Shown one piece after another: positions 2,104 to 62,604 of a stretch of 64,000 nt of DNA; position 1 is the stretch's first letter, and each line of letters starts with the position of its first letter. Source of the DNA: Candidatus Hadarchaeota archaeon (lineage in GTDB: Archaea; Hadarchaeota; Hadarchaeia; Hadarchaeales; JAGGTB01); assembly GCA_964399085.1 (NCBI GenBank), contig CAYNPN010000001.1, positions 43,468 through 107,467 on the forward strand. Reading direction: 5' to 3'. Made by a program: the position numbers and the translations under genes. A model generated the notes under the pieces. That model searched no databases. It was not told where the DNA came from and saw only the letters and a program-made list of their open reading frames with translations.

Positions 2104-2238
2104 TGTTTTTCCTGACCCTTCGTCTTCTTTAAGCCAATGATTTTTAATCGTTATTAACATTCACCAAGAACACGATGAAAATTCAAAACCTTTTTTCGCA
2201 AATGCTAGAATATAGTTTTGGGTTTCGAGGTCTCTGAA

Positions 2239-3678: not shown

Positions 3679-3679
3679 A

Positions 3680-4552: not shown

Positions 4553-4593
4553 TTATCTTCCAAGTGGGAAAATGCAGATAATGGGGTACAATT

Positions 4594-5304
4594 TTGGCTA
4601 AAGAAAGGCTGGGCATTTTGGCCTCCGGAAGAGGTTCAAACTTTCAAGCTATAATGAGAAACATAGAACTTGGCGCCTTGAAAAACGTAGACGCGGGAGT
4701 TTTAATAACGGATAATCCAGAGGCCCGAGCACTTGAGGTAGCGAATCATTTCGATGTCCCCCATAAAATCGTCGATGCTGGAGGCAAGGATAAGAAAGAA
4801 TACGAAAAGAAAATTCACGAAATTTTCAAGAACCACGACATTTCCCTCGTTATTCTAGCAGGCTTCATGCGAATAGTGAGTCCATACCTCATCGAGGAAT
4901 ATGAGGAGAGGATGATGAATATACACCCTTCTCTCCTTCCGGCCTTCAAGGGTTTGGATGCGCAAAAAAAGGCCCTAGACTATGGAGTCAAAGTGTCTGG
5001 ATGTACGGTTCACTACGTCTCCCAAGAAGTCGATTCCGGCCCCATAATCGTGCAACACCCGGTCCCAGTTAAAGAGGACGATACCGAAGAGAGCCTATCG
5101 GAGCGAATTTTGATATTCGAACACAGGTTATATTCAAAAGCCATTCAGCTTCATGCAGATGACAATCTAAAGGTCGAGGGGAGGAGAGTAAAAATCAATG
5201 CAGATGAAATTTGGAGAAAAAATTGGAAAAAAAGACAGAAGAAGTTTATTGAACATCAGGAGGAGGCCTTGGAGGAAGGTAAAGTATTCAAGGAGATAGG
5301 ATAA
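4594..5304 (+). CDS. purN: Phosphoribosylglycinamide formyltransferase (GAR transformylase) with an extra K/E-rich C-terminal tail
   Basis: ASGRGSNFQAI, LAGFMRIV, NIHPSLLPAF and SGCTVHYV..VDSGPII. Confidence 0.88.
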   Translation: MAKERLGILASGRGSNFQAIMRNIELGALKNVDAGVLITDNPEARALEVANHFDVPHKIVDAGGKDKKEYEKKIHEIFKNHDISLVILAGFMRIVSPYLIEEYEERMMNIHPSLLPAFKGLDAQKKALDYGVKVSGCTVHYVSQEVDSGPIIVQHPVPVKEDDTEESLSERILIFEHRLYSKAIQLHADDNLKVEGRRVKINADEIWRKNWKKRQKKFIEHQEEALEEGKVFKEIG

Positions 5305-6461
5305 TGCCTACGAAATACGAGGAAGTCGGAGTAGACGCCCAGAAGGAAGGGATTGAGGTATTCGAATCGACCATAGACAATCTCTTTCCCGAGGCCTTCT
5401 GTACCGTAAGTAGAGATCCGGACAACGAGGACCGGGGGATAGTACTCCACACGGATGGAGCCGGAAGCAAGCCCGTACAGAATTACCTTCTCTGGAAGGA
5501 AACCGGTGATCTGAGCTGGTTTGAAACTATAGGCCAAGATGTACTCGCCATGAATATAGACGATTTGATATGTATCGGGGGAAGGCCCTTGGCGTTTGTA
5601 GACTACATCGCCCTGAACAAGGGGCTCTTCCCCAAGAAAAAAGTTTTGTCGGAACTAAATTCGGGTTTTAGTAAAACTCTGGATCTAATGGAAAAGTATG
5701 GGCTCGATATTTCCTTCTTGGGTGGCGAAACGGCGGATCTGCCAGATCAATTAAAAACTCTCGACGTTTCCGGTACGATTTACGGGCGCGTCAAGCTCTC
5801 TGAAGCCATTACCGGCGAGGATGTAGAACCTGGGAACGAAATAATCGGTCTGAGAAGTGGGGGACGGACCGAATATGAAGAGGAGCAAAACAGTGGCATT
5901 ATGTGTAATGGGATAACCCTAGCAAGACATTGTCTAATGAAGGAAGATTATGAGAAAGAATACCCCGAAATAAAGGGTCCCGAAAAAGGATACTACGGCA
6001 AATTCGATGTCGAGGAATACACTTCCGAAATAGGGATGAAAGTTGGTGAGGCCATCGTCTCTCCGACCAGGATATTCGCCCCCGTTTTGAACGAAATTCT
6101 CGAAAAATTCCGCGAACGGGTGAAGGGAATAGTTCATAACACGGGGGGAGGTCAAACAAAGAGTCTAAATCTCGGAGAAAACATCCATTACTTGAAGGAG
6201 AATCCAATAGAACCGGATCCAATTTTTAAACTCATCCAAAGGGAATCCGGGGAGGAGTGGAAAGCGATGTACGAAGACTACAACATGGGTACCGGAATGG
6301 AAATAATAGCAGAAGAGGGCCAAGGAGACAAAATCCTGGATATAGCCGAAGATTTCGATTTAGAGGGAAAGGTTATTGGAGAATGTGAGAAAAATGATGG
6401 GGGAAACAAGGTAACCATCGACAGTCAATTTGGAAAATTCACATACCAAGAAGGTGAATGA
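5304..6461 (+). CDS. purM: Phosphoribosylformylglycinamidine cyclo-ligase (AIR synthase family)
   Basis: PurM-fold motifs: YEEVGVD, LHTDGAGSK, DDLICIGGRPLAFVDY and GGETADLPD. It lies between purN and purS. The start overlaps the purN stop. Confidence 0.8.
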   Translation: MPTKYEEVGVDAQKEGIEVFESTIDNLFPEAFCTVSRDPDNEDRGIVLHTDGAGSKPVQNYLLWKETGDLSWFETIGQDVLAMNIDDLICIGGRPLAFVDYIALNKGLFPKKKVLSELNSGFSKTLDLMEKYGLDISFLGGETADLPDQLKTLDVSGTIYGRVKLSEAITGEDVEPGNEIIGLRSGGRTEYEEEQNSGIMCNGITLARHCLMKEDYEKEYPEIKGPEKGYYGKFDVEEYTSEIGMKVGEAIVSPTRIFAPVLNEILEKFRERVKGIVHNTGGGQTKSLNLGENIHYLKENPIEPDPIFKLIQRESGEEWKAMYEDYNMGTGMEIIAEEGQGDKILDIAEDFDLEGKVIGECEKNDGGNKVTIDSQFGKFTYQEGE

Positions 6462-6718
6462 AAATTAAAACCTATCACGCCAGAATCGAAGTGAAATTAA
6501 AGCCGGACCATATCGATTCAGAAGGGCTTACTACGAAGGAAGCTCTGAGAGATATGGGATTTGAAGTTAAAGGGGCGTCAACCGCCAAAGTTTACGAGAT
6601 AGATTTTGAGGCCTCCTCTACTGAAGATGCCGAAAAAAAGGTCGAGGATATGTGCAAAAAGCTGCTAGCAAATCCCGTCAAAGACGATTACAAAGTTGAG
6701 GTGGAAAAAGCTGGATGA
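6458..6718 (+). CDS. purS: FGAM synthase subunit PurS
   Basis: An 86-aa protein that overlaps both neighbours. Its size and its position between purM and purL are typical of PurS. Confidence 0.8.
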   Translation: MKIKTYHARIEVKLKPDHIDSEGLTTKEALRDMGFEVKGASTAKVYEIDFEASSTEDAEKKVEDMCKKLLANPVKDDYKVEVEKAG

Positions 6719-9089
6719 TTTCTCCCTTATCGAGGAAAGAGAGAATCTATCTTTTGAGCTAGTCGAAATAAATCTCCCAGAAGCTGACGATTCCGATCTC
6801 ATGAAGATAAGCGAGGATTTCGGGCTCGCCTTGAGCCTGGAGGACATGAAGAAGTGTAAAAGACATTTTTCTAACACTGAGAAAAAGCCGACGGATGTGG
6901 AAATACAGACGATAGCCCAGACATGGTCCGAGCATTGTTATCACCGGACCTTCCGAGGAAATATTACAATGAATGGCAAGGAGGTCTGTCTCCTTGAAGA
7001 CTACATAAAAAAAGCCACCGAAGAAATTTCTCCAGATTGGTGTGTTTCCGTATTCAAGGACAATGCTGGTATTGTGGAGTTCGATGAGGAGAGATCGATA
7101 GCCGCCAAGGTAGAAACACACAACCATCCCTCCGCCATAGATCCCTTCGGCGGAGCGGCAACCGGAGTCGGCGGGGTCATTAGAGATATTCTCGGGGTTT
7201 GGGCCCGACCTATAGCAAACACGGATGTTCTTTGTTTCGGGCCTTTGGATTACGATTACGATAAGCTCCCCCAAGGAACGAAACACCCAAGATACCTATT
7301 CCAAGGAGTTACCGATGGAATAGGCCACTACGGAAATAACATGGGCATTCCTACCGTAAACGGGGCGATTTGTTTCGATGAAGGATACGTTGGAAATGTG
7401 GTGGTTTATTGCGGTTGTATAGGCACTATGCCTACCGATTCTTACGTAAGAAATCCGGAGCCGGGAGATATAGCAATCCTAGCGGGTGGAAAAACCGGTA
7501 GAGATGGAATTCACGGCGTAACTTTTGCCTCGGAGGAACTGACGGAGGAATCGGAAGAGTCACAGAGGCCGGCAGTACAAATACCCAATCCTATCGAGGA
7601 GGAAAAATTGAGGAGGGCAATCCTGAAAATCCGAGAGAAGGGGCTCGGAAAGGCAATAACGGATCTCGGAGGTGGGGGCCTATCGTCCGCCATGGGCGAA
7701 ACTGCCCACGATGCGGATTGTGGAGCTAGAGTTAATCTAGAAAGGGTTCCACTGAAACACGGTGAGATAGCGCCCTGGGAGATATGGATATCGGAATCCC
7801 AAGAAAGGATGTTTTTGGTCGTCGGGGAGGAAGACGTGGAGAAAGTTCTCGAAATATTTGAAAGTGAAAATGTCGAGGCGACTCGAGTAGGTAAATTTAC
7901 TGACGACGAAAAACTCAAGGTCTACTACAAAGACAATCTAGTCGCCGATTTAGATTTGGATTTCCTTTTCCAACCTCCAAAAATATCCCGAATGGCCAAA
8001 TGGAATGAGCCCGATTTAGAGGAACCACAGATATCGGAGCCCGAAGACTTTGAAGAGGTGTTATTGGATCTTTTATCCTCTTATAACGTCTCAAGTAAGG
8101 AATCGGTCATCAGGACCTACGATCACGAAGTGCAGGGAAACACTATCTTGAAGCCCCTTCAAGGAGAACACGCCGGTCCAAACAATGGAGCAGTTTTGAA
8201 ACCATTTCCGGATTCGAGGAAGGGAATAGCTATCTCCTCGGGGATAAAACCGAGCTATGGAAAAATCGATCCCTATTCCATGGCAGCTTCCGCAATAGAG
8301 GAAGCAATTAGAAACAACGTTGCAGTAGGTGGCAGAAGAATTTCTTTGCTGGACAACTTTACTTGGGGGAATCCGGAAAAGGAGGAGGAATTAGGAAAGC
8401 TCGTAAAGGCCTGCGAGGCCTGTTACGACATCGCCAAGGATTTCCAAACTCCCTTCATCTCGGGAAAGGATAGCCTTTACAACGAATCTCCCTTGGGGCC
8501 AGTCACGCCAACGTTATTGATAACCGCCGTCGGAATAGTCCCTGACGTGGAAAGCGCTGTCTCGATGGATTTAAAGAAGAAAGGAAATCCAATTTATCTC
8601 GTCGGAGAAACTTATCGAGAGTTAGGTGGATCTGAATATTACAAGCTAAACGGATATCTGGGTAGAAGCGTGCCAAAAGTCAGACCCCAACGAGCCAAGA
8701 GGAATGTAGAAACAATTAAGGAAGCGATTGACGAAGGATATGTCCGGTCCTGCCATGATCTCTCCGACGGTGGACTCGCAATTTCCATAAGCGAAATGTC
8801 TTTTTCGGGCGGATTGGGGGCCGAATTGAACCTCGAAAAAGTACCGAGTTCCATAAATAGGGACGACTTCCTTCTATTCTCCGAATCAAATGGTAGATTC
8901 CTAGTCGAAGTGCCCGAAGGAAAGGCCACCGAATTTGAAAACCTAGCGGAGGAATGTGTGTGCTCTCGGGTTGGTAAAGTGAAGGGCGGAGACAAGCTCC
9001 AAATTACTGATTTAAATAACGGAGAAATTTTGAACTCGAAATTGTCCGAACTGAGAAAAGCCTGGAAGGGAGGGACTGAGCCTGAGTGA
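6696..9089 (+). CDS. purL: FGAM synthase II (synthetase subunit)
   Basis: TWSEHCYHRTF, ETHNHPSAIDPFGGAATGVGGVIRD, AGGKTGRDGIHG and SGKDSLYNE. The start is uncertain: TTG 6696, with the next in-frame ATG at 6801. Confidence 0.9.
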   Translation: MRWKKLDDFSLIEERENLSFELVEINLPEADDSDLMKISEDFGLALSLEDMKKCKRHFSNTEKKPTDVEIQTIAQTWSEHCYHRTFRGNITMNGKEVCLLEDYIKKATEEISPDWCVSVFKDNAGIVEFDEERSIAAKVETHNHPSAIDPFGGAATGVGGVIRDILGVWARPIANTDVLCFGPLDYDYDKLPQGTKHPRYLFQGVTDGIGHYGNNMGIPTVNGAICFDEGYVGNVVVYCGCIGTMPTDSYVRNPEPGDIAILAGGKTGRDGIHGVTFASEELTEESEESQRPAVQIPNPIEEEKLRRAILKIREKGLGKAITDLGGGGLSSAMGETAHDADCGARVNLERVPLKHGEIAPWEIWISESQERMFLVVGEEDVEKVLEIFESENVEATRVGKFTDDEKLKVYYKDNLVADLDLDFLFQPPKISRMAKWNEPDLEEPQISEPEDFEEVLLDLLSSYNVSSKESVIRTYDHEVQGNTILKPLQGEHAGPNNGAVLKPFPDSRKGIAISSGIKPSYGKIDPYSMAASAIEEAIRNNVAVGGRRISLLDNFTWGNPEKEEELGKLVKACEACYDIAKDFQTPFISGKDSLYNESPLGPVTPTLLITAVGIVPDVESAVSMDLKKKGNPIYLVGETYRELGGSEYYKLNGYLGRSVPKVRPQRAKRNVETIKEAIDEGYVRSCHDLSDGGLAISISEMSFSGGLGAELNLEKVPSSINRDDFLLFSESNGRFLVEVPEGKATEFENLAEECVCSRVGKVKGGDKLQITDLNNGEILNSKLSELRKAWKGGTEPE

Positions 9090-16870: not shown

Positions 16871-19564
16871 TTATTTTCCAAAATATTTAGCCATCTTGAC
16901 TGTGTTTGGATTTTCCTCTTCAATTTGAAACCCAAATTTTCTGCACAGACGCAAAATCCGGGTACTTTCACTCTTTATCATGCCCCAAAGAATTTCTAGA
17001 TCCTTATCTCTGGCAACACTAATCAGAGATTTTAATAGGACTGAACCCAGTCCCAAACCTTGCCAAGGGTCCCCGACCACCACGGCAAATTCGCCTGTGT
17101 CCTTTTGTGGATCAATAGAAATACTCCCCATTCCAATTATTTTCGATCTACCATCTTCCTTCAGTTCTGCCACCAAGCGAATTTCTCTCTCATAGTCTAC
17201 GCTGGTAAATCGAACGATATCGTCGTGGCTGAGTTCCCTACTTTGAGAGAAAAATCTCTTTTTTAGGGTCTCCTTGGAAAAACTGTCGAAGAGATTAAAA
17301 ATTAATGGCTCATCTTCTGGCCTTATCGGGCGGATAGTGACTTCCCTATCGCCCTTCAGGTTTCTTCTTTCTATATATCTCAGAGGATATGGCTCGATTA
17401 TGAGATGATCATGCGGATCTCCGGAGGAGGGGATATCTTCATTGGAAAGGCTTATTCGCGCATCAATGGCCGAAAGACCTCCTTTCCAACCTGCTAAGGT
17501 AAATTCCATCTTCTCTATTTCAGGGAGATCTATAATCAACTGGGAGAGACGAGCGAGATATTCGTGTAGTGTCCTAATCTTCTCCGAAGGTTCATCGTCA
17601 AGCTCTCGGATTAACTTGGCAATTTCCGTCCTCTCAATCAATCTAGATGAATGGACCTGATTGAGAGGTGGAAAATCGGCTGCCTCATCTTGATATAAAC
17701 TTCCTTCGATGCCTCCCTTTCCAAATAAAATATAAGACCCGAATCTCCGATGCTTTCTGGAGCCTAACATAATTTCGTAGTCAATATTCCTAATCATCCT
17801 CTGAACAGTGACACCACGGATCTCCTTCTCAGGATGTAAATTCTCAGCGTTCTCAATAATCGCACTATAAGCATTTCTCACTTCGCTCTCGGATCTGAGA
17901 TCAAGGGCCACTCCTCGGGCCTTCCATTTTTGAGATATATATGGAGATCTAACTTTCAAAACGACGGGGAAACCGATCTTCTTTGCCAAATCCACTGCTT
18001 TTTCCGAACTAGAAGCTACATGAGTTTCATTAGCAGGTATACCGTAGGTTTGTAGAAATTCTTTTGACTCCTCCTCCATCAGAACACTTCGATTCTCGGT
18101 CGCCAAATTTTCCATCATAGACTTGAGATAATCTCTTTGATGGACCTGATCTTTGACAGGTACTTCATGGGATGATAAAGGCTCAGGAGTCTCGTAGAGA
18201 AGTTCTCTATTCCTTAGATGCCTATACATATACATGAAAATCCTTGAGCCCTGTCGAGGTGAGTTGACTGTGGGAATACCTCCTTGACGAAGTATATTTC
18301 GGCTCTTTTGTGTCGCTTCTCCACCCAGCCAACAAGACAAAATAGGTTTCCTCTCATTCTGAGCTAAATCGGCTAATTCTTCTGCTAGATCCCTTGATGA
18401 GAAAATACCGTGAGGAGTGTAAACAACCAATACTCCATCGACATTCTCATCGTCTTTACAGGACTCTATACAGGTAATGTAATCATCTATACTGGCATCA
18501 CTGGATATATCGATGGGATTCGATTTACTGGCATATCTGGGGAGTGTATCCTGTAGATCGTTCTTCGTTTTATCGGAAAGAGGTGCCAGTTCCCCGTCGT
18601 ACTCAATAAGGGCATCAACCGCCATAATTCCAGGTCCCCCGGCATTTGTAACTATAGCTAAATTGGGTCCAGTTGGAAGACATTCGTGGGCCAAAGCTTC
18701 AGAACAGCCGAACAGGTCATCTATACTGTCTACCCGAACCACGCCGGTTCTATTGAAAAGGGCATCATATAGCGAATCCTTTCCGGGTGAGGCACCTATA
18801 TGTGAAGAGACCGTTTTCGAGCTCTCGGGGTATACTCCTGACTTCTCCAAGACTAAAGGACCGGTTCTAGAAAAGTCTTTGGCTGCACTTATGAATTTTT
18901 CCGGTCTGTTTATGGACTCTACATGCATAAGAATTGTATTGGTTCGGGTGTCCTTCCCAAAATAATCAATCAGATCACCAAAATCCACATCAATCATATT
19001 CCCGACGGAAACAAATGCACTGAATCCGACGCCCGTCCCTTCTTGACGATTTATTATTGAAGGTCCCAAGGCCCCACTCTGGGAAATGAAGGCAATTCTG
19101 CCCGAATCGGGTGTCTTTTCCGATATGGTAGCATTTAATTTTTGAGAAGGTCTAACGACTCCTAGAGAATTTGGGCCTAGAATCCGTATTTCGTGCTTTC
19201 TCCTCTCCTTCTCAATCCTTTTTTCTAATCTTTTTCCCTTGGAATTACTCTCCCGAAAACCGGAGGAGATGATTATAACCGCGGGGATGTCCGCTTCTCC
19301 ACATTCTCGAACCATCTTTGGCACTGTCCGAGCAGGAGTAACTATACAAGCGAGGTCGGCCTGTCCAGAAATATCTTTTACACTGCCTACTGTATCGAAT
19401 CCCCAAATTTTCTCCCTATTAGGATTGACCAAATAAACCTCGTCCTTATAGTCCTCCACCAGATTCTTTGTGAGGGTTCTAGCTACGGAGTCTTCTCTGT
19501 CCGTGGCTCCAATAACAGCAATAGAACTAGGCTCGAAAAATTTTTCCAAATTTTTCGTGGACAT
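16871..19564 (-). CDS. Pat-like protein: ADP-forming acyl-CoA synthetase-like domains fused to a C-terminal GNAT acetyltransferase
   Basis: N-terminal CoA-binding motif (SIAVIGATDRE). The succinyl-CoA-synthetase-like and ATP-grasp parts follow. The C-terminal GNAT carries DPWQGLGLGSVLL. The start is ATG 19564 (track start TTG 19573). Confidence 0.85.
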   Translation of the reverse strand: MSTKNLEKFFEPSSIAVIGATDREDSVARTLTKNLVEDYKDEVYLVNPNREKIWGFDTVGSVKDISGQADLACIVTPARTVPKMVRECGEADIPAVIIISSGFRESNSKGKRLEKRIEKERRKHEIRILGPNSLGVVRPSQKLNATISEKTPDSGRIAFISQSGALGPSIINRQEGTGVGFSAFVSVGNMIDVDFGDLIDYFGKDTRTNTILMHVESINRPEKFISAAKDFSRTGPLVLEKSGVYPESSKTVSSHIGASPGKDSLYDALFNRTGVVRVDSIDDLFGCSEALAHECLPTGPNLAIVTNAGGPGIMAVDALIEYDGELAPLSDKTKNDLQDTLPRYASKSNPIDISSDASIDDYITCIESCKDDENVDGVLVVYTPHGIFSSRDLAEELADLAQNERKPILSCWLGGEATQKSRNILRQGGIPTVNSPRQGSRIFMYMYRHLRNRELLYETPEPLSSHEVPVKDQVHQRDYLKSMMENLATENRSVLMEEESKEFLQTYGIPANETHVASSSEKAVDLAKKIGFPVVLKVRSPYISQKWKARGVALDLRSESEVRNAYSAIIENAENLHPEKEIRGVTVQRMIRNIDYEIMLGSRKHRRFGSYILFGKGGIEGSLYQDEAADFPPLNQVHSSRLIERTEIAKLIRELDDEPSEKIRTLHEYLARLSQLIIDLPEIEKMEFTLAGWKGGLSAIDARISLSNEDIPSSGDPHDHLIIEPYPLRYIERRNLKGDREVTIRPIRPEDEPLIFNLFDSFSKETLKKRFFSQSRELSHDDIVRFTSVDYEREIRLVAELKEDGRSKIIGMGSISIDPQKDTGEFAVVVGDPWQGLGLGSVLLKSLISVARDKDLEILWGMIKSESTRILRLCRKFGFQIEEENPNTVKMAKYFGK

Positions 19565-19773
19565 TAATAACAATTCTTAATTTCTATATATTCTCATATT
19601 AGTATTTAGACTATTATCAATGCTTTCGGGAAATTTGGTAATGTCAGGGACGATCTATTTTCAATAAGAAATAACTGAAATGGACCGCAAAAAGAAACAA
19701 AAAGAATTTAAAGCGAATAGACTAATCCTCAGTATCTATAACAAAAATAAAAACTAAACGGAGGTGGAAAAAC

Positions 19774-22021: not shown

Positions 22022-24691
22022 TTACTCCGGTCTGAGATGTAGTATGGCTTTGACTGTATCCTCGCTTTCTTCTTCTATTTCAAAACCTAGCTTCTCGCAC
22101 AAGTTAATCATGGGTTTATTTCTTTTCATAATAGTGCCCCAAATATGATTTAATCCCTTATCTTCAGCCGCCCCAATTACAGCATCTGTTAATTTTTCCC
22201 CGAGGCCAAGTCCCTGCCAAGGGTCTCCCACCACAATTGCAAATTCGCCCGAATTCTCACCCGGATCGATTATTAAACGACCTACTCCTATCATCTTTCT
22301 TTTTCCCTCCTCCTCAAGTATCCCTATTATTGCCATTTCCCGCCGGTAGTCAATATTAGTATATCTCACCATATCCTCATGAGAAACCTCCTTCATAGGT
22401 CCAAAAAATCGATTTCTCCATGTCTCCTCCGAAAAAGTTTCGAAGAGTTCAAATTCCAATGGTTCGTCCTCCGGTCTTATTGGTCGAAGCGTGACAGGCC
22501 GTCCGTCATCAAGTTCCCATTCCTCTACGTATTTTCGGGGATAGGGCTCAATAACCAAATGATCATGACTTTGTGATTCCTCAATACATCGACTCGAATC
22601 AATCCTCATTTGGACGTCCAGAGTCAGAAATCCCTCCCCTGTCTTTACGAATGGATTAATATCGATCAAATCAATCTCCGGAAAATCTATTATCAATTGC
22701 GACAGTTTTATGAGATGCTCCTCCAAGCTTCTTAAGACATCCGTTGAATCTTCTCCGGATTCCCTGAGCCGATTATAAACTTTGGTGTCCTCTATCAGAC
22801 GATGGGCCAGAGTTTGATTCAGGGGAGGATAACCAATAGCTATATCCTCATAGTATCCCAAATCCTTTCCACCTCTTCCGAAAAGAATACCGGACTTAAA
22901 AACAGGATTTTTCCTCAACCCCAAAATTAGCTCCATTTCGATGTCAGATATCATCTCCTCGACTATGACGCCATCTATATCGGCTGAAGGACATTTCTCC
23001 TCGGTTTCCTCGATTATTTTATCATAAGCCTCTCTAATCTCCTCCCTCGAATTCAAGTTACGAGCAATGCCCAGATCCTCATTCCGTATATCATGAGATT
23101 GTACCTTCAGATTAACTGGAAATCCCATCTCAGATGCGTGTTCCGCAGCTTCGGAGGATGTAGTGACTAAATGACTCTGTGGAATAGGTATTCCGTAGGT
23201 TTCGAGGATCTTTCTCGACTCGGATTTAGATAAGTACTCTCGATCCTCGTTGGCGAGTCTTCTGAGCATAACTTTGAGGTTGTATTTCGGCGGTGTTCTA
23301 TTAACTGGAAGCTCTTCAGGCGTTTCTAGCAACCTTTCCAAGTTCCTAGCGTAGCTATTCAAATACATATAGGCCGTGATAGACTGTTCCGGGGTAGACT
23401 GAACGGAGTACCCACTACTCCTCAGAATCTGTTGACCTTCCTTAATTTTCTCTCCCCCCATCCAGCAGGGTAGGATCGGTTTTTCCGACCCTTCTTTGAG
23501 GGAGGCTATCGCTTCGGCAGCTTCCACGGATCCTAGGGTTCCTAACGGGGTATATAAGCAGAGTATTCCGTTTACGTTCTCATCTTCAAGGCAAATTTTC
23601 ACGGCATTTTTATACTTCTCCGGGCTAATATTGTTCGTAAAATTAATCGGATTTTCTACGGTCGAATCTTCCGGCAAAATATTTCCGAGATCGCTTTTCG
23701 TCTCCTCTGACAAATCAGCAAGAGACCCGCCCTGCTCAATTAGGGCATCGGTGGCCATTTCCTCCGGCCCCTCGGCGTTTGTAACTATAGCTAGACTCGA
23801 CCCCTCGGGTAAATTTTGCTTTGCGAGCGTCTCTGAGGCCGTGAAAAGATCCTCTATAGTGTCAACCCGGGTTATGCCCGCTCTCTTGAAAGCTGCATCG
23901 TAAAACTTGTCCGAACTTATTTCGAACCTATCGGGGGGAAGATTACGCGCTCCCTTTTCGTGTTTTCCCGACTTGACTGCCATTATCGGCTTCGTCCTGG
24001 CGAATCCCCTAGCGGCGCTCATGAATCTTTCCGCCTCCATGATCTCCTTTACATACATGAGGATGCTTCCGGTCCTAGGATTCCTGCCGAAATAATCTAT
24101 CAAATCTGCGAAGTTTACGTCTATCATGTCCCCCACCGACACGAAGCTACTGAAACCAAACTGTGCATTCATCGCCCAATCAAGAGTGGCAGAAGACAGA
24201 GCGTCGCTTTGTGAGAGAAAAGTCAACTCCCCGGGTTCTGGCATTTGTTTAATAAGGGAAGCGTTGAGGTTTTGATGGGGATTCATAATTCCCAGACTGT
24301 TGGGGCCCAAGATCCTCATCTCGTGCTTTTTTCTCATCCTCGTTATTTTCTCTTCTAGCCCGTCCTCCTTACAGTGCGGCTTTCCTAGATCTGATATAAT
24401 GAGAAGGGCTGGGATATCGGCCGAGCCGCATTTTTCAACAGAATCTATGATAGAATTATTTTGGGGAGTAATTATTCCAAGGTCGATTGATTCGGAAATC
24501 TCTTCGACATCCGAAAAGGTTTCATTTTCATAAACTTCGTCCAACTCTTGATTTACGGGAAAAAGCTCTCCCTTGCTTCTATCCGTCAAATTCCTCATGA
24601 GAATAGACCCAGCTGAACCCCCCTTATCACTGGCTCCAATAAGTGCAATATTCTTGGGTTTGAATATTTTATCCAAGTTCGTGTGTGGCAA
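22022..24691 (-). CDS. Second Pat-like protein (ACS-like domains + C-terminal GNAT)
   Basis: Collinear with 16871..19564: NIALIGASDKGGS ... C-terminal DPWQGLGLGEKL. 889 aa. Confidence 0.85.
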   Translation of the reverse strand: MPHTNLDKIFKPKNIALIGASDKGGSAGSILMRNLTDRSKGELFPVNQELDEVYENETFSDVEEISESIDLGIITPQNNSIIDSVEKCGSADIPALLIISDLGKPHCKEDGLEEKITRMRKKHEMRILGPNSLGIMNPHQNLNASLIKQMPEPGELTFLSQSDALSSATLDWAMNAQFGFSSFVSVGDMIDVNFADLIDYFGRNPRTGSILMYVKEIMEAERFMSAARGFARTKPIMAVKSGKHEKGARNLPPDRFEISSDKFYDAAFKRAGITRVDTIEDLFTASETLAKQNLPEGSSLAIVTNAEGPEEMATDALIEQGGSLADLSEETKSDLGNILPEDSTVENPINFTNNISPEKYKNAVKICLEDENVNGILCLYTPLGTLGSVEAAEAIASLKEGSEKPILPCWMGGEKIKEGQQILRSSGYSVQSTPEQSITAYMYLNSYARNLERLLETPEELPVNRTPPKYNLKVMLRRLANEDREYLSKSESRKILETYGIPIPQSHLVTTSSEAAEHASEMGFPVNLKVQSHDIRNEDLGIARNLNSREEIREAYDKIIEETEEKCPSADIDGVIVEEMISDIEMELILGLRKNPVFKSGILFGRGGKDLGYYEDIAIGYPPLNQTLAHRLIEDTKVYNRLRESGEDSTDVLRSLEEHLIKLSQLIIDFPEIDLIDINPFVKTGEGFLTLDVQMRIDSSRCIEESQSHDHLVIEPYPRKYVEEWELDDGRPVTLRPIRPEDEPLEFELFETFSEETWRNRFFGPMKEVSHEDMVRYTNIDYRREMAIIGILEEEGKRKMIGVGRLIIDPGENSGEFAIVVGDPWQGLGLGEKLTDAVIGAAEDKGLNHIWGTIMKRNKPMINLCEKLGFEIEEESEDTVKAILHLRPE

Positions 24692-24792: not shown

Positions 24793-24820
24793 TTTTTTTG
24801 TTATGGGTGTAACAAAAAAT
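24793..24820. repeat. Palindrome copy 1: tttttttgttaTGGGTGtaacaaaaaat (10-bp arms, 6-nt spacer)
   Basis: Read directly from the sequence. Its last base is the first base of the stop-codon complement of gene 24820..25380. Confidence 0.9.
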
Positions 24821-25380
24821 TATTCAATTTTTTCTCTTAGTGGCGAAATCCTTTCCCTCAAACTCTCAGAAAATTCCATATCATCGGTCCAATCATTTTT
24901 CATTAACCTTTCACACTTCTCGATGACTTTTCTAATTTTTTGAAAATCGTCCTCATCCAAACTATCTTTATACTCCAGCCTAAGAAGGGCCTCAATTGAA
25001 GAATCTAAGGTTTGCTTGGGGGTAATTTTTATCCGATTCAAAGCTTCCCTCATTGCACTCATTCGATCTCCGGGGGGGAGAATTCCATCAAACGAATAGA
25101 GATCAATTGGATCCCATTTCGAATCCCCAAAAAAATCATCTAACTTATATCTGGCCTTCTTTGGGATAGCTATGACGCTTTTACCTAACCTGAGGTGGGG
25201 TAACGGGGTCAATAAACCAGGATAAAATCTCTCATAAACTTTTTCACGGCCTTTCTGATCCTCTCGTTTGGTCCTTGATTTGAAACCAAATAACTTTCTA
25301 TAGAACTTTGTTCTCTTTGACCCCTTAAATTGAAGATCAAAACTATAGATTCTGGCTAGAATTCCATCATCTATTTCCAT
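24820..25380 (-). CDS. Hypothetical protein, 186 aa, unknown function
   Basis: Clean ORF with an ATG start. The N-terminal ~100 aa (ARIYSFDLQF.GSKRTKFYRKLFGF ... LRLGKSVIAIP ... IDLYSFDG) has a beta-alpha-beta pattern that weakly resembles Cas2/VapD-type ferredoxin folds. That resemblance is inference only. The C-terminal half is helical and acidic. Confidence 0.7.
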   Translation of the reverse strand: MEIDDGILARIYSFDLQFKGSKRTKFYRKLFGFKSRTKREDQKGREKVYERFYPGLLTPLPHLRLGKSVIAIPKKARYKLDDFFGDSKWDPIDLYSFDGILPPGDRMSAMREALNRIKITPKQTLDSSIEALLRLEYKDSLDEDDFQKIRKVIEKCERLMKNDWTDDMEFSESLRERISPLREKIE

Positions 25381-25383
25381 CAG

Positions 25384-25409
25384 TTTTTGTTATGGGTGTA
25401 ACAAAAAAT
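25384..25409. repeat. Palindrome copy 2: tttttgttaTGGGTGtaacaaaaaat
   Basis: Begins 3 nt beyond the ATG complement of gene 24820..25380. On the gene strand it would span the TATA-to-start interval. Confidence 0.9.
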
Positions 25410-25486
25410 AAACTTTTGCTTTGTCTCTATTGAACACCACCCCCTTCGTTTCGAGTGGAGTATAATAAAAATCAAAAAATAAAAGG

Positions 25487-25511
25487 TTTTTTTGTTATGG
25501 GTGTAACAAAA
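25487..25511. repeat. Palindrome copy 3: tttttttgttaTGGGTGtaacaaaa
   Basis: Read directly from the sequence. It lies 78 nt from copy 2 in the AT-rich spacer before tyrS. Confidence 0.9.
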
Positions 25512-25608
25512 TAATTATATGAGAATATCGACCTTACTTAAAAATAGAATAAAAAATATAGGTTTTCGAAGAATTTATTTCCACTTGAAACAAAGGAGTG
25601 GCATTGAT

Positions 25609-26673
25609 TCACCGAGTTACTTTCTGCTGTTTTACGAATTCATATAGTTTATTAGCTTCTTCGTTTTCTTCAAAATATTCTCTAATAGGTTTCACCAATT
25701 CGTTAAGATATCTCGCTATATTCTTTTTCAAATCCAGAGGATGAAGATTCTCATTGAGGTATGCTTCCTCCAATTCCTCATAATTGTTAAACTTCATGTT
25801 ACCACCATATTCTTCCTTTCTCCTAATTTCAACCCCTTCAAAGTTTTCAAAAACCAGATGCTTTGTATAGTCTATAATCGGGTTATTTTTGACTTTACCC
25901 TCTGGACAATAAGCTCCTTTGATTTTTTCCAGAATTTCTTGCTCGGAGTCATGAACGTAAATAGAGGTAGAAGGTTTACTCTTACTCATCTTCTCTTCTT
26001 CACCACCACCCCCCAAACCCATCAACATATGATGAGAAACAGTCACAGGTTTCTCTCTATCCAATTTATCAGAGACTTCCCGTGCCAGCATATTCGCCCT
26101 CCTCTGATCTTGGCCCAGCTGACAGATATCCACATCGAGGTGGAAAATATCCGCCACCTGCATACTAGGATAAAAAATCCATGCCGCGGGATTTTCTCCA
26201 ACGCTTTCTCTCCCAGCTATCTTCAAAGCCCTTCGAGCTCTGTTTAGAGTGTGATTTTTCGCAACTCTAATTACAGTCTCCCAATATTCTTTATCGATTA
26301 TTTCGGATGCCCACAGAACCTCGACTTTGTCCATAGGAACGCCGGCTGCCCTCCAGACCTCTTGGAAGTATTCACCGACTTTCCTTATTTTTTCCAAATC
26401 TCCTCCCATCTTGTCGTTAATCCAAGCGTGCCAATCCGCAATAAGTAACTTGAATCTGACACCCGCGTCTATCAATTTCTTCAGATTTTGGGCCCTATAT
26501 ACGCCGAAAGCAACATGAGCCAAGCCCGAGGGTTCAAACCCGTCGTATGCCACGGGGTTTTGCTTTCTTTTTAGGAGGTCTTTCAACTCCTCCTCCGTGA
26601 CGATTTCCTCTCCCACTTCCCTAATTAGTTCAAATCTTTCATCAACATCCATGCTTACACCTAGTTTTTCCAT
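25609..26673 (-). CDS. tyrS: Tyrosyl-tRNA synthetase (archaeal type)
   Basis: AYDGFEPSGLAHV (HIGH-region equivalent), LIADWHAW and KMSKSKPST (KMSKS loop). Confidence 0.9.
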   Translation of the reverse strand: MEKLGVSMDVDERFELIREVGEEIVTEEELKDLLKRKQNPVAYDGFEPSGLAHVAFGVYRAQNLKKLIDAGVRFKLLIADWHAWINDKMGGDLEKIRKVGEYFQEVWRAAGVPMDKVEVLWASEIIDKEYWETVIRVAKNHTLNRARRALKIAGRESVGENPAAWIFYPSMQVADIFHLDVDICQLGQDQRRANMLAREVSDKLDREKPVTVSHHMLMGLGGGGEEEKMSKSKPSTSIYVHDSEQEILEKIKGAYCPEGKVKNNPIIDYTKHLVFENFEGVEIRRKEEYGGNMKFNNYEELEEAYLNENLHPLDLKKNIARYLNELVKPIREYFEENEEANKLYEFVKQQKVTR

Positions 26674-26800: not shown

Positions 26801-27625
26801 ATGAAATCCAGAGCAAGGTCTATTGCAATTTCCTCCGGTAAGGGGGGTACGGGTAAGACAACCCTGACTGCAAATCTCGGTATAGCCCTTGCCAACGAAG
26901 GACACGACGTTACAATCCTCGACGCCGATTTGACCATGGCCAATTTGGGAATTATTATAGGAATGGACAACTGTGAAGTCAGCTTCTTGGACGTCCTTTC
27001 GGGCCAGGTAGATCTTGAGGAGGCCATCTACCAAGATTACGGCGTTAAAGTAGTTCCCACCGGCTTCCGGTTTGAGGATGTACATGAAACCCTTTCGGAT
27101 GTGGATTCCGAGAGCGTCGAAAGTGCTGTCGGCGAGATTTTACGTCGTACCGAGATTCTATTAATCGACGTCCCCGCAGGAATGACGGATAATTCAATAA
27201 TTTCAATCGCGGCGGCCAGAGAAATGCTTCCTGTGACCAATCCGAATTATTCCAGCATCGTCGATACCTACAAGACGATTCGTTTAGCCAACGTTGTGGA
27301 TACTTGGACCAGGGGACTTGTACTTAATCGAGTCGGAAGATCTTCGGATATCTCTCAGGGGGAGATAGAGCACTTCATGGGAAAGACCCTCGGCTCCGTC
27401 TCCATTATCTCGGAGATCCCCGAGGATGAAGTCGTTCAGGAGGCCGAGCGTGCGGGTACCCCTGTCACGGTCTACGAACCCGAGGCCAGAGCTTCAAAAT
27501 CTATTTACGAACTGTCGAAGGTTATAACCGGCGAATCGGAACTACCTTACGAACCCTACGAGGAAAAGGAAATTGATAGAACGATCAAAAGACTTTCCCG
27601 GGCCCTCACCGGCCGCCGGACCTAG
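26801..27625 (+). CDS. minD: MinD/ParA-family P-loop ATPase
   Basis: Deviant Walker A SSGKGGTGKTT. ILDADLTMANL. 274 aa. Confidence 0.85.
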   Translation: MKSRARSIAISSGKGGTGKTTLTANLGIALANEGHDVTILDADLTMANLGIIIGMDNCEVSFLDVLSGQVDLEEAIYQDYGVKVVPTGFRFEDVHETLSDVDSESVESAVGEILRRTEILLIDVPAGMTDNSIISIAAAREMLPVTNPNYSSIVDTYKTIRLANVVDTWTRGLVLNRVGRSSDISQGEIEHFMGKTLGSVSIISEIPEDEVVQEAERAGTPVTVYEPEARASKSIYELSKVITGESELPYEPYEEKEIDRTIKRLSRALTGRRT

Positions 27626-32726: not shown

Positions 32727-33929
32727 GTGGAGAGAAATATGTACGGAGATATTTTTGAGGAGGAGATGTCGAAGGAGACCGTATTTAAAGATCAGTCGAA
32801 GCTCTCCCCCGACTTCGTTCCCGAGGAGCTGGTCCATCGGGAGGAAGAGTTTAGGAAGCTGACTCAATTCTTTAAACCCGTCTTGGAGAATCAGGCGAGT
32901 CAGAGGGTTCTGGTATCCGGCTCGGTGGGGGTCGGAAAGACGGCTCTCACATCGAGATTTGGCCAAGAACTGGAGTCGGCCGCCAAAAAGCGGGATATGG
33001 ATTTGGTCTACGCCCACGTAAACTGCCGGAAACGGGGGACGCCACAAATGGTTCTCCACAACCTGGCCAGTAATTTTCCCATCAGCGTGCCGAAGAGAGG
33101 ATTCGCACCACAGGAAATTATGGAACATATAGTCGACTATTTGGAGAAGAAGGACGTCTATCTCACCGTAACACTGGATGAACTCGATTACTTTATTCGT
33201 CAGAACGGTCCGGATCTTCTCTATTCCCTTACTCGAGTCGCCGAGGAATCTGGGACCCCCAATAGGTTGAGTATAATTGCCACTTCGTTTTCGCCGGACT
33301 TCCTGAAGTCCCTCGACGAGGCAACGCGCAGCACTTTCATGCACAACCAGATAGATATGGACAGATACAGCGCCGATCAGCTCTACGACATCCTATATCA
33401 GAGGGTAGATCTCGCCTTCAAGCCCAATATGGTCAGAGATGAAGCCATCGACCTCATTTCGAACATTGCATCCCGACGGGGAGATGCAAGATTTGCTCTC
33501 GAGCTCCTATCCTATTCCGGCATGATCGCCAGTCAGGGTGAGATCGTGGAGGTTTCGCCCAATCACGTTAGGAGGGCCAAGTCCGAGATAAACCCGGAGA
33601 TAAGGAAGGATGTCCTTATGGACCTCAGAAAACACGAGCTTCTATCGTTGCTCGCTCTCGCCAGGAGGCTGAAGATATCCGACGAGGCATTCGCCTTGAC
33701 CGGCGATGTGGAGGAGGCCTACAATATAGTCTGTGAGGAGTATCAGGAGAAACCTCGCAAACACGTCCAGTTTTGGAATTATATAAATAAGTTGGAGAAT
33801 TTGGGGATAGTTGATACCGAGAAATCAAGAGGAGGACACAGGGGTAAGAGCCAAAGGATCAGCATTTCCGACGCCCCCCCTGAGATGGTGGAGGAAGAAG
33901 TGGAAAAAATTCTTGAAAGAGGAAATTGA
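32727..33929 (+). CDS. cdc6: Orc1/Cdc6 replication initiator
   Basis: LVHREEEF.KL, Walker A GSVGVGKTA, Walker B TLDELD and a C-terminal winged helix (GKSQRISI). Confidence 0.9.
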   Translation: MERNMYGDIFEEEMSKETVFKDQSKLSPDFVPEELVHREEEFRKLTQFFKPVLENQASQRVLVSGSVGVGKTALTSRFGQELESAAKKRDMDLVYAHVNCRKRGTPQMVLHNLASNFPISVPKRGFAPQEIMEHIVDYLEKKDVYLTVTLDELDYFIRQNGPDLLYSLTRVAEESGTPNRLSIIATSFSPDFLKSLDEATRSTFMHNQIDMDRYSADQLYDILYQRVDLAFKPNMVRDEAIDLISNIASRRGDARFALELLSYSGMIASQGEIVEVSPNHVRRAKSEINPEIRKDVLMDLRKHELLSLLALARRLKISDEAFALTGDVEEAYNIVCEEYQEKPRKHVQFWNYINKLENLGIVDTEKSRGGHRGKSQRISISDAPPEMVEEEVEKILERGN

Positions 33930-33949: not shown

Positions 33950-34042
33950 GGGGCGGTGGTCTAGCTAGGTTGAGGACACCAGCTTCGGGACCTTCAAAGG
34001 CGAAAAAGCTGGAGATCCGGGGTTCGAATCCCCGCCGCCCCA
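33950..34042 (+). tRNA. tRNA-Pro (anticodon CGG) with a 17-nt intron (33990-34006) at the canonical 37/38 position
   Basis: Hand fold. Acceptor stem GGGGCGG/CCGCCCC. D stem GTCT/GGAC. Anticodon stem CCAGC/GCTGG. Loop TTCGGG|A. T arm CGGGG-TTCGAAT-CCCCG. Discriminator A. The intron forms a bulge-helix-bulge: UUCG/CGAA 4-bp helix flanked by the 3-nt bulges GGA and AAA. CCA is not encoded. Confidence 0.9.
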
Positions 34043-34287: not shown

Positions 34288-34788
34288 ATTTTTGTTATAC
34301 TCATAACTAAAAATTGAACTTCTTGTTGATTCTCTAAACAGGGTTTTCTTCTACTTTCTCTAATAATTTCCTGAGATTATTAATTTCTTCAAAATTTAGC
34401 CCATTTAAAATTTCATTTTCGATGCAGAAATTGAAATCCTTAGTAGATTGAACAATTTTTACTTTCCCCTTCCACTGATGTTGTAGGCTTCCAAGCGATT
34501 TTTTCCGAGCAAATAGTCGAGGTATTTTTCCGTCGTGTTCCAGTTCAGGTCGGCGAACCTAACAATTGTATTTTTTACAGTCTTCACTACTCTTCACTGT
34601 CTCCAGAATATCGGCCCCAGTTTTTCCAGCCCCCAACCCATTAAACCATCACAACACCTTTAAAAGACACGGGGGAATAAATGGAAAACAGAAAAATCAG
34701 TTACTTTGTGAACTACTGAGCTCAGGAATAGCTAATATTTTACGAGTAATAAAGTTTTATGAGGAATAAAGGACTCAAAGTGTGTCCT

Positions 34789-44136: not shown

Positions 44137-45373
44137 CCGAGAAGACACCTTCCCAATCGTGGATTGGGTGGGTGATGAATCGGCGTTTAGTTTCACTGCC
44201 CCCTCCCGATAAGAGGTTAGAAAGTTAGGCGAGTGATTCCGTGTTGATGAAGGTTCGGAAGACGATTAAGTGCAAGATAGTCGATCTTACCGAAAAGAAG
44301 AGGAAAGCTCTTGAAAGAGAGTATGAGAATCTTCAAGAATATCTTCGCGAAAATGAGAATGTAGAACTCTATTCGGCAAACAAGCAACAGGCGGAGAGGT
44401 ACTACGAAGAGATCAAGGACGGCAAGGAATATCCTATCTCGGTTAGGAAAGATTTGATAGATATTCAAAGAGCGGACAACGAAATAGCGGAATATTGGTT
44501 AAATGTGAGAGTTGCTTCCGTCTACGGAGGTATCAATGTCCCTATCAAACCTCACATCCAAATCCCCTCCGATGGCGGCGGTGTGGAATATTGTGAATCC
44601 AAGATTTTGAAAAAGGATGGAGAGTTCTATTTTCACCTGACCGTTAAGAAAACCGTTCAGGCTAAGGAATCCTACGACGGTCTCCTTGCCGTAGATGTCG
44701 GGCAGAAATACCTCGCGGTGTCGGTGGCATCGCACAGAGATAGACCGAAATTTCGGGGCAGGGAGATCAGAGGAATTCGGAGACACTACAACTGGCTGCG
44801 GAAAAGGCTCGGGGAGAAGAAGCTGAAAGATGAAATAGCGAGACTTTCGGACAAGGAATCCCGAAAGGTAGACCAAAAACTACATGAAATAGCCAAAGAA
44901 CTCGTAGAAGAAGCCGACCAAAACGATGAGTTGATAGTCGTCGGAAACCTTGAAGGATTGAGGAAAGGCAGCGGCGATATGGGGGAGACGATGAACCGGA
45001 TGATCGGCAATTTTCCCTACCACAAGCTCGCAAAATATCTCGAATATAAGGCTAACGAAAGAGGGATACAGGTCTTGAAGATGAACGAGCACTACACCAG
45101 TCGAGAATGTAGCAGGTGCGGTGCAAAAGGAAAAAGACCGAATCAGGGAACTTTCAAGTGTCCCCGGTGCGGATACGAGGTTAATGCCGACTTCAACGGC
45201 GCCAAGAATATTTTCGAACGTACCAAGGTGGCGTCGGGTAACATTCCCGGCGTCGGGGCCGTGAGTGGGCCGGCCCTTAACCCTTCCGATATGGTCTCCA
45301 CCTCTGGCTCTACAAGTGGGGAGACCGAGGAGGGAAGCCTCTTCCTAACGAGCGAGGCGAGTTAGGTGGAGGT
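44137..45373 (+). mobile_element. IS200/IS605-family element carrying only tnpB (IS1341-like); the ends are approximate (+/-5 nt)
   Basis: The left end has the hairpin CCCAAT-cgtgg-ATTGGG (44152-44168). The right end has the hairpin GCCTC-N12-GAGGC (45337-45358) followed by gagttaggtgg. Both ends recur in the MITE at 21878-22019, and the left end recurs at 54247-54296. Confidence 0.75.
44247..45365 (+). CDS. tnpB: TnpB (RuvC-like, RNA-guided-nuclease family; OrfB_IS605)
   Basis: RuvC triad context: LAVDVG (D), IVVGNLEG (E) and VNADFNGAKNI (D). Zinc ribbon CSRCG...CPRCG. The track starts at GTG 44241, and an ATG lies at 44247. Confidence 0.88.
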   Translation: MKVRKTIKCKIVDLTEKKRKALEREYENLQEYLRENENVELYSANKQQAERYYEEIKDGKEYPISVRKDLIDIQRADNEIAEYWLNVRVASVYGGINVPIKPHIQIPSDGGGVEYCESKILKKDGEFYFHLTVKKTVQAKESYDGLLAVDVGQKYLAVSVASHRDRPKFRGREIRGIRRHYNWLRKRLGEKKLKDEIARLSDKESRKVDQKLHEIAKELVEEADQNDELIVVGNLEGLRKGSGDMGETMNRMIGNFPYHKLAKYLEYKANERGIQVLKMNEHYTSRECSRCGAKGKRPNQGTFKCPRCGYEVNADFNGAKNIFERTKVASGNIPGVGAVSGPALNPSDMVSTSGSTSGETEEGSLFLTSEAS

Positions 45374-62577: not shown

Positions 62578-62604
62578 ATTTTTTGTTACACCCATAACAA
62601 AAAT
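62578..62604. repeat. Palindrome copy 4 (spacer inverted): attttttgttaCACCCAtaacaaaaat
   Basis: The same arms as copies 1-3 at 24.8-25.5 kb. It lies in the 150-nt gap between two minus-strand genes. Confidence 0.9.

Follow-up and report, generated by a model that had tools for sequence, protein, structure and literature searches.

A palindrome-bracketed gene of a new protein family beside a putative replication origin of Hadarchaeota-type archaea

How a single gene comes to be bracketed, at both its start and its stop codon, by copies of one short palindrome is the question raised by a locus of Candidatus Hadarchaeota archaeon (GenBank assembly GCA_964399085.1). The locus lies in a stretch of 64,000 nt of contig CAYNPN010000001.1 (positions 43,468 to 107,467 of the forward strand; hereafter the window), and the gene (nt 24820–25380, − strand) is an open reading frame (ORF) for a protein of 186 aa. 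The answer proposed here is that the gene adjoins a putative origin of chromosome replication, that the palindrome is a conserved part of this origin, and that the 186-aa protein is the candidate for its reader.

In the window the palindrome has the form TTTTTGTTA-TGGGTG-TAACAAAAA. The 24-mer TTTTTGTTATGGGTGTAACAAAAA is found exactly at nt 24795–24818 and 25384–25407 and, on the opposite strand, at 62580–62603, and a further copy (25489–25512) carries one mismatch at its outermost base. Dinucleotide-preserving shuffles of the window gave no match (0/100). The first-pass annotation, made from the sequence alone, had listed these four places, and its description of their surroundings agrees with the coordinates. 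Copy 1 (nt 24793–24820; T7-GTTA-TGGGTG-TAAC-A6) does abut the stop codon of the 186-aa gene: its A-run ends at 24819, the stop codon (TTA on the + strand) occupies 24820–24822, and the gene strand reads TAA-TTTTTTGTTACACCCATAAC..., which gives the T-run (T6) that had been noticed directly after the stop. Copy 2 (nt 25384–25409) begins after a gap of 3 nt from the start codon (CAT on the + strand, 25378–25380). The gene-strand sequence upstream of the gene is AAAGTTTATTTTTTGTTACACCCATAACAAAAACTGATG, running up to the start codon as AAAGTTTATTTTTTGTTACACCCATAACAAAAACTG-ATG, and includes a TATA-like A/T box (AAGTTTATTTTTT, nt 25403–25416, −) that overlaps the distal arm of copy 2 and is centred about 27 nt before the ATG. 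As read from the sequence, copy 2 is a putative operator covering approximately −4 to −27 of a presumed leaderless promoter. Copy 3 (nt 25487–25511) lies upstream of the gene, and copy 4 (nt 62578–62604), with its centre in the opposite orientation, lies between two minus-strand genes as had been claimed, 52 nt upstream of a metallophosphoesterase gene (nt 61754–62527) and beside a gene for a metallo-beta-lactamase-fold protein (nt 62678–63358). A fifth, degenerate copy (TTTTTGTTATACTCATAACTAAAA, nt 34289–34312) has three mismatches, in the centre and one arm, and is found downstream of the orc1/cdc6 gene and a tRNA gene.

The operator reading of copy 2 offered by the first-pass annotation was reasonable but incomplete, as it missed the sequence surrounding copy 3. 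The spacer between the 186-aa gene and the tyrosyl-tRNA synthetase gene tyrS is 228 bp long and is laid out like an archaeal replication origin. Comparison of the copy flanks disclosed a second conserved block between copies 2 and 3, and a pattern search resolved two boxes resembling the origin recognition box (ORB). The gene-proximal ORB (nt 25437–25459) reads TCCACTCGAAACGAAGGGGGTGG on the − strand and the distal ORB (nt 25580–25601) reads TCCACTTGAAACAAAGGAGTGG on the + strand, the parts matching the pattern being TCCACTCGAAACGAAGGGG (25441–25459, −) and TCCACTTGAAACAAAGGAG (25580–25598, +). The pair is inverted, with the G-rich ends facing outward, and agrees with both the archaeal consensus ORB, CTTCCAGTGGAAACGAAAGGGGT (PMC4153887, Table 2), and the Sulfolobus mini-ORB, GATTTTCAGATGAAACG (PMC3089459). 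When a loose ORB pattern was searched with up to two mismatches, only three matches occurred in the 64 kb, and the two good ones (0 and 1 mismatch) are this inverted pair, 120 bp apart. The stretch between the ORBs (nt 25460–25579), a putative DNA-unwinding element, has a GC content of 19.2% compared to 44.7% for the window, and only 0.016% of the 120-bp windows in the 64 kb are as AT-rich. It holds palindrome copy 3, the core of which starts 48 nt from the TCCA end of the gene-proximal ORB.

Archaeal origins are defined by this layout, in which inverted ORBs enclose an unwinding element rich in AT (PMC4010727). The initiator gene orc1/cdc6 (nt 32727–33929, +; Pfam Cdc6_lid, Cdc6_C and AAA) lies 7.1 kb from the ORB pair, and it is likewise 7–8 kb from the origin in the genomes CAZSNS (L047) and CAYLJV (L030; related loci are referred to here by L numbers). 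Because it combines an inverted pair of consensus-like ORBs, an AT-rich stretch between them and an orc1/cdc6 gene at this distance, the locus is very probably the chromosomal replication origin of a Hadarchaeota-type archaeon. The consensus ORBs, their inversion, the AT-rich stretch and an Orc1/Cdc6 gene in the neighbourhood are shared with canonical archaeal oriC regions (PMC4010727; PMC4153887), from which the locus differs in having orc1/cdc6 7 kb off, tyrS and a new gene as the immediate neighbours of the ORB pair, and only one ORB per side. A plasmid or viral origin was considered and rejected, as no relatives were present in PLSDB, INPHARED or IMG/VR, which argues that the module is chromosomal. 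GC skew in the window mostly follows gene strand and was of no help in placing the origin. A search of the literature for the palindrome strings, and for origins in Hadarchaeota, turned up nothing.

More than 60 related loci (34–65% protein identity) show this module, ordered as ORB, AT-rich stretch containing a palindrome, ORB, gene and palindrome. In an alignment of four species (the window, L003, L012 and L049), both ORBs and all three palindromes are kept at the same positions; the AT-rich spacer is otherwise fully diverged, copy 3 being its only conserved part. The ORB sequence of L003 and L012 is TCCAGTGGAAACGAAGGGGTG. The 417 kb of retrieved DNA contain just 10 matches to the ORB pattern, all of them in inverted pairs (window, L003, L012, L049 and L041). 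The position of copy 1, after the stop codon, is also occupied in L003, L012, L049, L053 and L061/L062. A scan of metagenomes added 54 family loci, 50 with enough upstream sequence and 46 that could be scored downstream of the stop codon. An ORB(+) lies within 140 nt of the gene in 47/50 of these, with an inverted pair in 38, and the GTTAC-N4-GTAAC palindrome is upstream of the gene in 39, in 38 cases upstream of an ORB(+). It follows the stop codon within 110 nt in 29/46. The distance from palindrome core to ORB(+) is 41–44 nt in 36 metagenome loci and 47–49 nt in the Hadarchaeota type. As a control, flanking DNA at distances above 600 nt from the gene (99 kb in all) gave 7 ORB and 9 palindrome matches, and loci missed by the first ORB regular expression turned out to have variant ORBs at the same place. 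On the far side of the origin, tyrS (nt 25609–26673, −; Pfam tRNA-synt_1b) is a conserved neighbour, found beside the origin by tblastn in 41 loci.

The palindrome arms GTTAC/GTAAC are constant and the centre varies with lineage, the general form being TTTGTTAC-N4-GTAACAAA. Copies at one locus usually share the same centre, and lineages differ (TATA in L055, CATG in L056, ATAT in L057 and TGGGTG in Hadarchaeota), although L053, L054 and L060 each have two centre variants within one locus. For example, L055 (49% protein identity) has three copies of TTTGTTAC-TATA-GTAACAGAAA, one outside ORB(−), one between the two ORBs and one 2 nt ahead of the ATG; L056 (56%) carries TTTGTTAC-CATG-GTAACAGAAA twice; L057 (45%) carries ...ACATATGTA... 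twice; and L054 (44%) has, 3 nt ahead of the ATG, the palindrome TTTTGTTACACGTGTAACAAAA, perfect over 22 bp, and an ORB upstream. In most lineages no loop interrupts the site, which is a perfect palindrome throughout and as such better suited to a symmetric dimer on duplex DNA than to a hairpin.

The arrangement seen at copy 2, described earlier as a palindrome filling the gap from a TATA-like element to the ATG of a gene that seems to be leaderless, proved to be widespread. A palindrome stands 0–5 nt before the ATG in 11 further loci (L003, L012, L019, L049, L053, L054–L057 and L060–L062), following the order A/T-rich box, palindrome, 0–5 nt, ATG, and boxes equivalent to the TATA-like box of the window are present in L019, L054, L056 and L057. 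This conserved arrangement fits an operator for autoregulation. The genome CAZEBR is of particular use in that it separates the parts of the module. Its locus L041 has an ORB pair beside tyrS, with a palindrome 79 nt outside the pair, and the 186-aa gene is absent there; the family gene is on another contig (L019), away from its usual neighbours, and has retained a palindrome 5 nt before its ATG. The link between gene and palindrome and that between origin and palindrome thus each survive separation.

Several related loci show features of their own around the module. A contig of MSBL1 SCGC-AAA382A03 (L053, nt 100–2400) carries two tandem family paralogues of very different base composition. 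The first is AT-rich and belongs to a complete Hadarchaeota-like module (ORB pair, palindromes and gene, followed by a phosphoribosyltransferase gene), the second is of the MSBL1 type, rich in GC, and has a mini-ORB of its own, and a truncated palindrome (TTTTTTGTTATGGGTGTAgtcc) marks the boundary near nt 1665. Integration of a second origin could explain the tandem, as could a chimera in the single-cell assembly. In MSBL1 SCGC-AAA259O05 (L052, nt 2004–3599), a gene for a 531-aa tyrosine recombinase (Phage_integrase) lies directly 5' of an origin-like region and family gene. The distant lineages L064, L068, L072, L088 and L103 share a second block of conserved non-coding sequence, ...aatactttcggtgacctctc(c)cccc(t)aaa..., 30–90 nt after the family gene and beyond the downstream palindrome; an Rfam search of it in L072, L088 and L103 returned no match.

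With good confidence, the palindrome is taken to be a functional protein-binding element. Which protein would bind it is the next question, and the adjoining gene is the obvious candidate. The statement of the first-pass annotation that its product belongs to no recognised family has stood: Pfam gave one sub-threshold match (DUF3140, E = 0.011), and NCBIfam, PHROGs, PADLOC and PDB sequences, the last searched with the single sequence and with a profile, gave none. Its description of the gene as an orphan has to be withdrawn, as homologues form 27 clusters at 44–65% identity from metagenome-assembled genomes of the MSBL1 and Hadarchaeota types, in addition to the 54 metagenome loci. The family is nonetheless small, a profile search of 1.84 billion representatives recovering only 44 members.

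The full-length AlphaFold2 model (predicted local distance difference test score, pLDDT, 94.3; predicted template modelling score, pTM, 0.86; N-domain alone, pLDDT 91) has an N-terminal beta-alpha-beta-beta-(beta-hairpin)-alpha-beta domain (residues ~8–100) followed by four C-terminal helices. Foldseek returned no significant match (E > 0.05) for the full-length model against PDB and viral structures or for the N-domain against PDB (up to April 2026). The highest probabilities went to Cas2 chains (0.72–0.75, TM 0.41–0.53), with PII-like and RRM domains next, and from this ranking the N-domain is predicted to be ferredoxin-like in fold. The best Cas2 matches are weak (5xvn_F, E = 0.16, probability 0.75, TM 0.41; 5zyf_C, probability 0.72, TM 0.45/0.53). 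The Cas2-like pattern proposed earlier is therefore compatible with the model but membership of Cas2 is unproven: the predicted beta-alpha-beta-beta...alpha-beta order and the conserved Asp (SFD motif) that closes strand 1 are as in Cas2/VapD, whereas E values exceed 0.1, Pfam has no Cas2 match, and an extra beta-hairpin (PHLRLGKSV) and the C-terminal helical domain are additional. No cas genes or repeat array were seen near the locus, the neighbours being acs, tyrS, minD-like and spoIIM-like genes, and the only Rfam match in the window is a tRNA. The N-domain is strongly basic (pI 9.2–11 outside the brine-adapted MSBL1 lineages) and has two Lys/Arg-rich beta-hairpins; the C-domain is acidic.

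Distant relatives retain the N-domain motifs alone (SFD...KTKFFR.LYG...PH.RLGKSV), some with a weakly winged helix-turn-helix (wHTH)-like C-terminus, and one is named Hermodarchaeota, an Asgard group. In the Asgard-type loci L058 and L059 (nt 3100–9000), where the family members likewise consist of the N-domain and a weakly wHTH-like C-terminus, there is a conserved cluster of genes for an AAA ATPase (436–458 aa), a 122-aa ORF, the family protein, an XPD-like helicase and a RadB/RecA-like ATPase. No canonical ORB was found in these two loci, and L058 has a different palindrome, AAATTATTGACTTCAATAATTT, at nt 6231–6252. For the AAA ATPases beside the relatives in L056 and in the Asgard-type L058, identity with Orc1/Cdc6 could not be established.

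Several lines of evidence make the 186-aa protein a reasonably likely reader of the palindrome. It is the product of the only uncharacterised gene constantly linked to the element; the relocated gene keeps the palindrome at its ATG; copies at one locus usually share a centre that differs between lineages; the site is in most lineages a loop-free perfect dyad, as a symmetric dimer on duplex DNA would favour; and the N-domain is basic with two Lys/Arg-rich hairpins. The competing explanation accepts the origin and the palindrome as real and assigns the reading to another factor, such as an Orc1/Cdc6 paralogue, MCM or some other protein, or to DNA structure itself, so that the 186-aa gene would be only a conserved neighbour using the same element in its promoter and terminator. 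It draws on the CAZEBR origin, which keeps a palindrome although the gene is elsewhere, on the many lineages without an operator copy, on the lack of a recognisable DNA-binding fold in the protein and on the unrelated genes beside dispersed copies. It accommodates less readily the palindrome at the ATG of a gene removed from the origin, an association held across more than 60 loci, centre variants that follow the gene lineage and the strongly basic N-domain, and is considered rather unlikely.

Copies away from the origin bear on what kind of element the palindrome is. Among 185,579 species representatives, the exact 22-mer core was found in the genomes of five Hadarchaeota species alone, in 51 stretches. 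These five genomes have ~6–19 exact copies each and 64 non-redundant exact 22-mers in total, and beyond the origin set there are some 3–16 further intergenic copies per genome. Of 80 sites within six mismatches of the 24-mer, 56 are exact, 13 have one mismatch (nearly always the outermost base) and 11 have 3–6. All copies are intergenic, next to unrelated genes and in every orientation. The flanks of 68 copies share nothing past ~28 nt, so that the unit is only ~28 nt, and an extended mobile element or miniature inverted-repeat transposable element was rejected on the same ground. The suggestion in the first-pass annotation of a gene cassette duplicated together with its insertion site finds no support in these unrelated flanks or in the positional conservation of copies across species. 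Its other concern, that the palindrome might prove to be a generic element in front of unrelated genes, is borne out in part by the copies per genome and their neighbours. Genes with a 5' copy include those for flavodoxin, a tRNA methyltransferase, SpoIIM, Fic, HisF, aspartate kinase and phosphoesterases, functions so unrelated that a classical regulon was rejected as unlikely.

Some copies are orthologous across species, namely the origin set, a site upstream of the metallophosphoesterase gene and a site after orc1; many other positions are species-specific. At the metallophosphoesterase site, a copy lies 52–55 nt upstream of the gene in the window (62581), L009 (1767) and L016 (7828), and the asymmetric centre (TGGGTG or CACCCA) is flipped in L016. 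The orientation of the centre is thus irrelevant to the gene, and the flip suggests either inversion of the spacer or replacement by gene conversion between copies. Exact copies occur 170–220 nt after the orc1 stop codon in L030 (2978), L036 (3176) and L047 (2998), where the window has its degenerate copy, so that the initiator gene also has a palindrome element on its 3' side.

Such scattered copies, near-identical within a genome and different between lineages, recall bacterial repetitive extragenic palindromic (REP) sequences and their associated tyrosine transposases (RAYTs), in which case the palindromes would be mobile repeats spread by a Cas2- or HUH-like nuclease/transposase, the bracketed protein. 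The gene is indeed flanked by its own repeats, many copy positions are species-specific, the centre has flipped at one orthologous site and the N-domain is ferredoxin-like in prediction. The protein, however, has no HUH motif and no match to Y1 transposase or any other Pfam family; the conserved His of the family, in PHLRLGKSV, is part of H-L-R rather than H-U-H, and is lost in distant members. In number, the ~6–19 copies per genome amount to tens rather than the hundreds typical of REP sequences, several sites are orthologous and identical across species with proteins only 60–75% identical, the spacing to the ORB is fixed across distant lineages, and relatives are lacking in the plasmid, phage and IMG/VR collections. 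A REP-like origin of the palindromes is accordingly most improbable.

Transcription signals are another way in which one element could recur at unrelated genes. The palindromes would then be mainly bidirectional terminators or insulators, with a T-run on either strand and a weak hairpin, that shield the origin and separate genes, the protein being unrelated to them. T6–7 runs are present on both strands, 12/68 copies lie within 5 nt of a stop codon, some directly follow tRNA genes, and the hairpins fold better than shuffled sequence (z ~−3.5). Their folding energies are nevertheless weak (−4 to −8 kcal/mol), a reason for which an explanation by RNA structure was set aside, and Rfam found no RNA family at the palindrome or ORB region in the window and eight related loci. 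Convergent, tandem and divergent intergenic hosts occur in a ratio of 15:31:11 among the 57 classifiable copies, close to the random 1:2:1, and the 11 copies between divergent gene starts are not where terminators would be expected. Since archaeal termination needs only a T-run, this explanation also leaves conservation at 24/24 positions across species and the fixed ORB spacing unaccounted for, and as the main role of the element it is improbable. A scan for sigma-70 promoters and intrinsic terminators was uninformative for an archaeon.

The distribution of copies raises, finally, the matter of chromosome partition. In CAZSNS 8/11 copies are on the 68-kb origin contig; CAYLJV has 6 copies on its 88-kb origin contig and 4 on contig 1, all in the first 190 kb of 717 kb. 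A gene for a MinD/ParA-type P-loop ATPase (nt 26801–27625, +; Pfam ParA/CbiA) adjoins tyrS in the window, and a MinD-like gene does so in 7 loci, including the distant L097 and L065, where identity is 67%; an eighth tblastn match (L014) is not at the origin locus. These features, and the exactness and conservation of the sites across species, would be consistent with parS-like palindromes near the origin, the 186-aa protein as centromere-binding protein and the ATPase as motor. In ParABS and SegAB systems the centromere-binding protein and ParA are encoded in an operon, but here the ATPase gene is on the other strand, split from the 186-aa gene by tyrS and the origin, and in most loci it is missing from that position. 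In CAZEBR copies are scattered over many contigs (the assemblies are fragmented), and the 186-aa protein has no ParB, ribbon-helix-helix (RHH) or SegB-like fold. A centromere-like role is very improbable, and the ATPase gene is taken as context only.

The closest parallel is found at oriC1 of Sulfolobus, where a motif termed ucm lies in the unwinding element between ORB2 and ORB3 and is essential for origin firing (Dhanaraju et al. 2025, PMC12141716). It is bound by UBP, a basic protein of 111 aa that occupies 329 mostly intergenic sites and interacts with MCM (PMC12141716). Both systems have a short conserved non-ORB motif in the AT-rich element between inverted ORBs, separate from the Orc1 sites; in both the motif recurs at many other, mostly intergenic sites beside genes of disparate function; and in both the reader, here a candidate, is a small basic protein rich in beta-hairpins. 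They differ in that ucm spans 11 bp, has no palindromic symmetry and is bound by UBP as a monomer, and the present element is an inverted repeat of 20–28 bp. The 186-aa protein is unrelated to UBP (Saci_0847/SiRe_1573) in sequence and predicted fold (no Foldseek match with E < 0.05), UBP has 329 ChIP peaks against ~6–19 exact sites per genome here, the ubp gene has not been reported as origin-adjacent or autoregulated, and binding was demonstrated for UBP and is inferred here. On balance, the 186-aa gene appears to encode an origin-associated, autoregulated palindrome-binding protein of a new family, functionally like the ucm/UBP system.

In such a mechanism the basic hairpins of the N-domain would contact the palindrome in duplex form, the protein most likely binding as a dimer. 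The archaeal repressors MDR1, LrpA and Phr control leaderless promoters from sites that lie between TATA box and start site. By analogy, binding of the 186-aa protein to this interval of its own leaderless promoter would block RNA polymerase and lead to autorepression. The palindromic site over about −4 to −27 of its own gene, directly after a TATA-like box, resembles the sites of those repressors; the protein differs from them in lacking an HTH, wHTH or RHH domain, and the site differs in being found also in a replication origin and at 3' gene ends. At the origin, binding next to Orc1 might affect unwinding or the way in which the MCM helicase is loaded or leaves; a position about four helical turns from the Orc1-bound ORB would place the protein where MCM is loaded. 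At dispersed sites it may act as a site-specific nucleoid-associated protein, and the T-runs on both strands of the palindrome may also stop transcription.

Several observations weigh against this reading. The orc1/cdc6 gene does not directly adjoin the ORBs, as the initiator gene (orc1/cdc6 or whiP) does at most characterised archaeal origins. No DNA-binding fold was recognised in the 186-aa protein (Foldseek E > 0.05), and a different protein could read the palindrome. A simple model of a symmetric dimer does not account for the Hadarchaeota centre, which is asymmetric but the same in every copy. An operator copy at the ATG is absent from MSBL1-type and many metagenome lineages, and autoregulation is thus not universal. 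Neighbours of the dispersed copies are functionally unrelated, with no preference for promoters over 3' ends. In addition, a search of sequencing runs found the locus only in assembled contigs of DNA metagenomes and in no RNA-seq run.

Other features of the window are recorded briefly. Rfam places a tRNA gene (93 nt, 55 bits) at nt 33950–34042 (+), 20 nt after the orc1/cdc6 stop codon, and ARAGORN reports none in the whole window. The gene probably contains an intron or departs from the norm in some other way. Two paralogues of ~890–900 aa with a similar start sequence (nt 16871–19573 and 22022–24691, both −) lie on either side of a 672-aa ORF of the AMP-forming type, and the second combines an ADP-forming acyl-CoA synthetase and a GNAT acetyltransferase domain in one protein. 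The mobile elements of the window, a TnpB/Cas12f-like gene (Cas12f1-like_TNB domain) and two ORFs with transposase-like N-termini (nt 44241–45365, +; 51806–52888, +; 53099–54169, −), lie at a good distance from the origin.

Knowledge of archaeal origins comes largely from a small number of cultured models, and factors other than Orc1/Cdc6 are only beginning to emerge, as with UBP of Sulfolobus in 2025. What is new here is a conserved origin layout across an uncultured clade (Hadarchaeota, MSBL1 and relatives), in which a second cis element keeps a constant spacing from the ORB and is adjoined by a dedicated gene whose product is without a known fold. This gives a likely origin position for these genomes and a candidate new origin-binding protein, and the distant N-domain relatives in Asgard archaea, beside XPD-like and RadB-like genes, raise the prospect that the domain may act more widely in DNA transactions. 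A bolder proposal, possible but tentative, is that the family is a previously unrecognised, lineage-wide component of replication initiation: an origin-encoded protein that would dock on a palindrome in the unwinding element about four helical turns from the Orc1-bound ORB, gate helicase loading or origin firing, repress its own gene, and use a dozen origin-biased sites for titration or organisation, by a logic like that of DnaA boxes/datA or ParB/parS. If true, the 186-aa protein would couple initiation, its own dosage and chromosome organisation.

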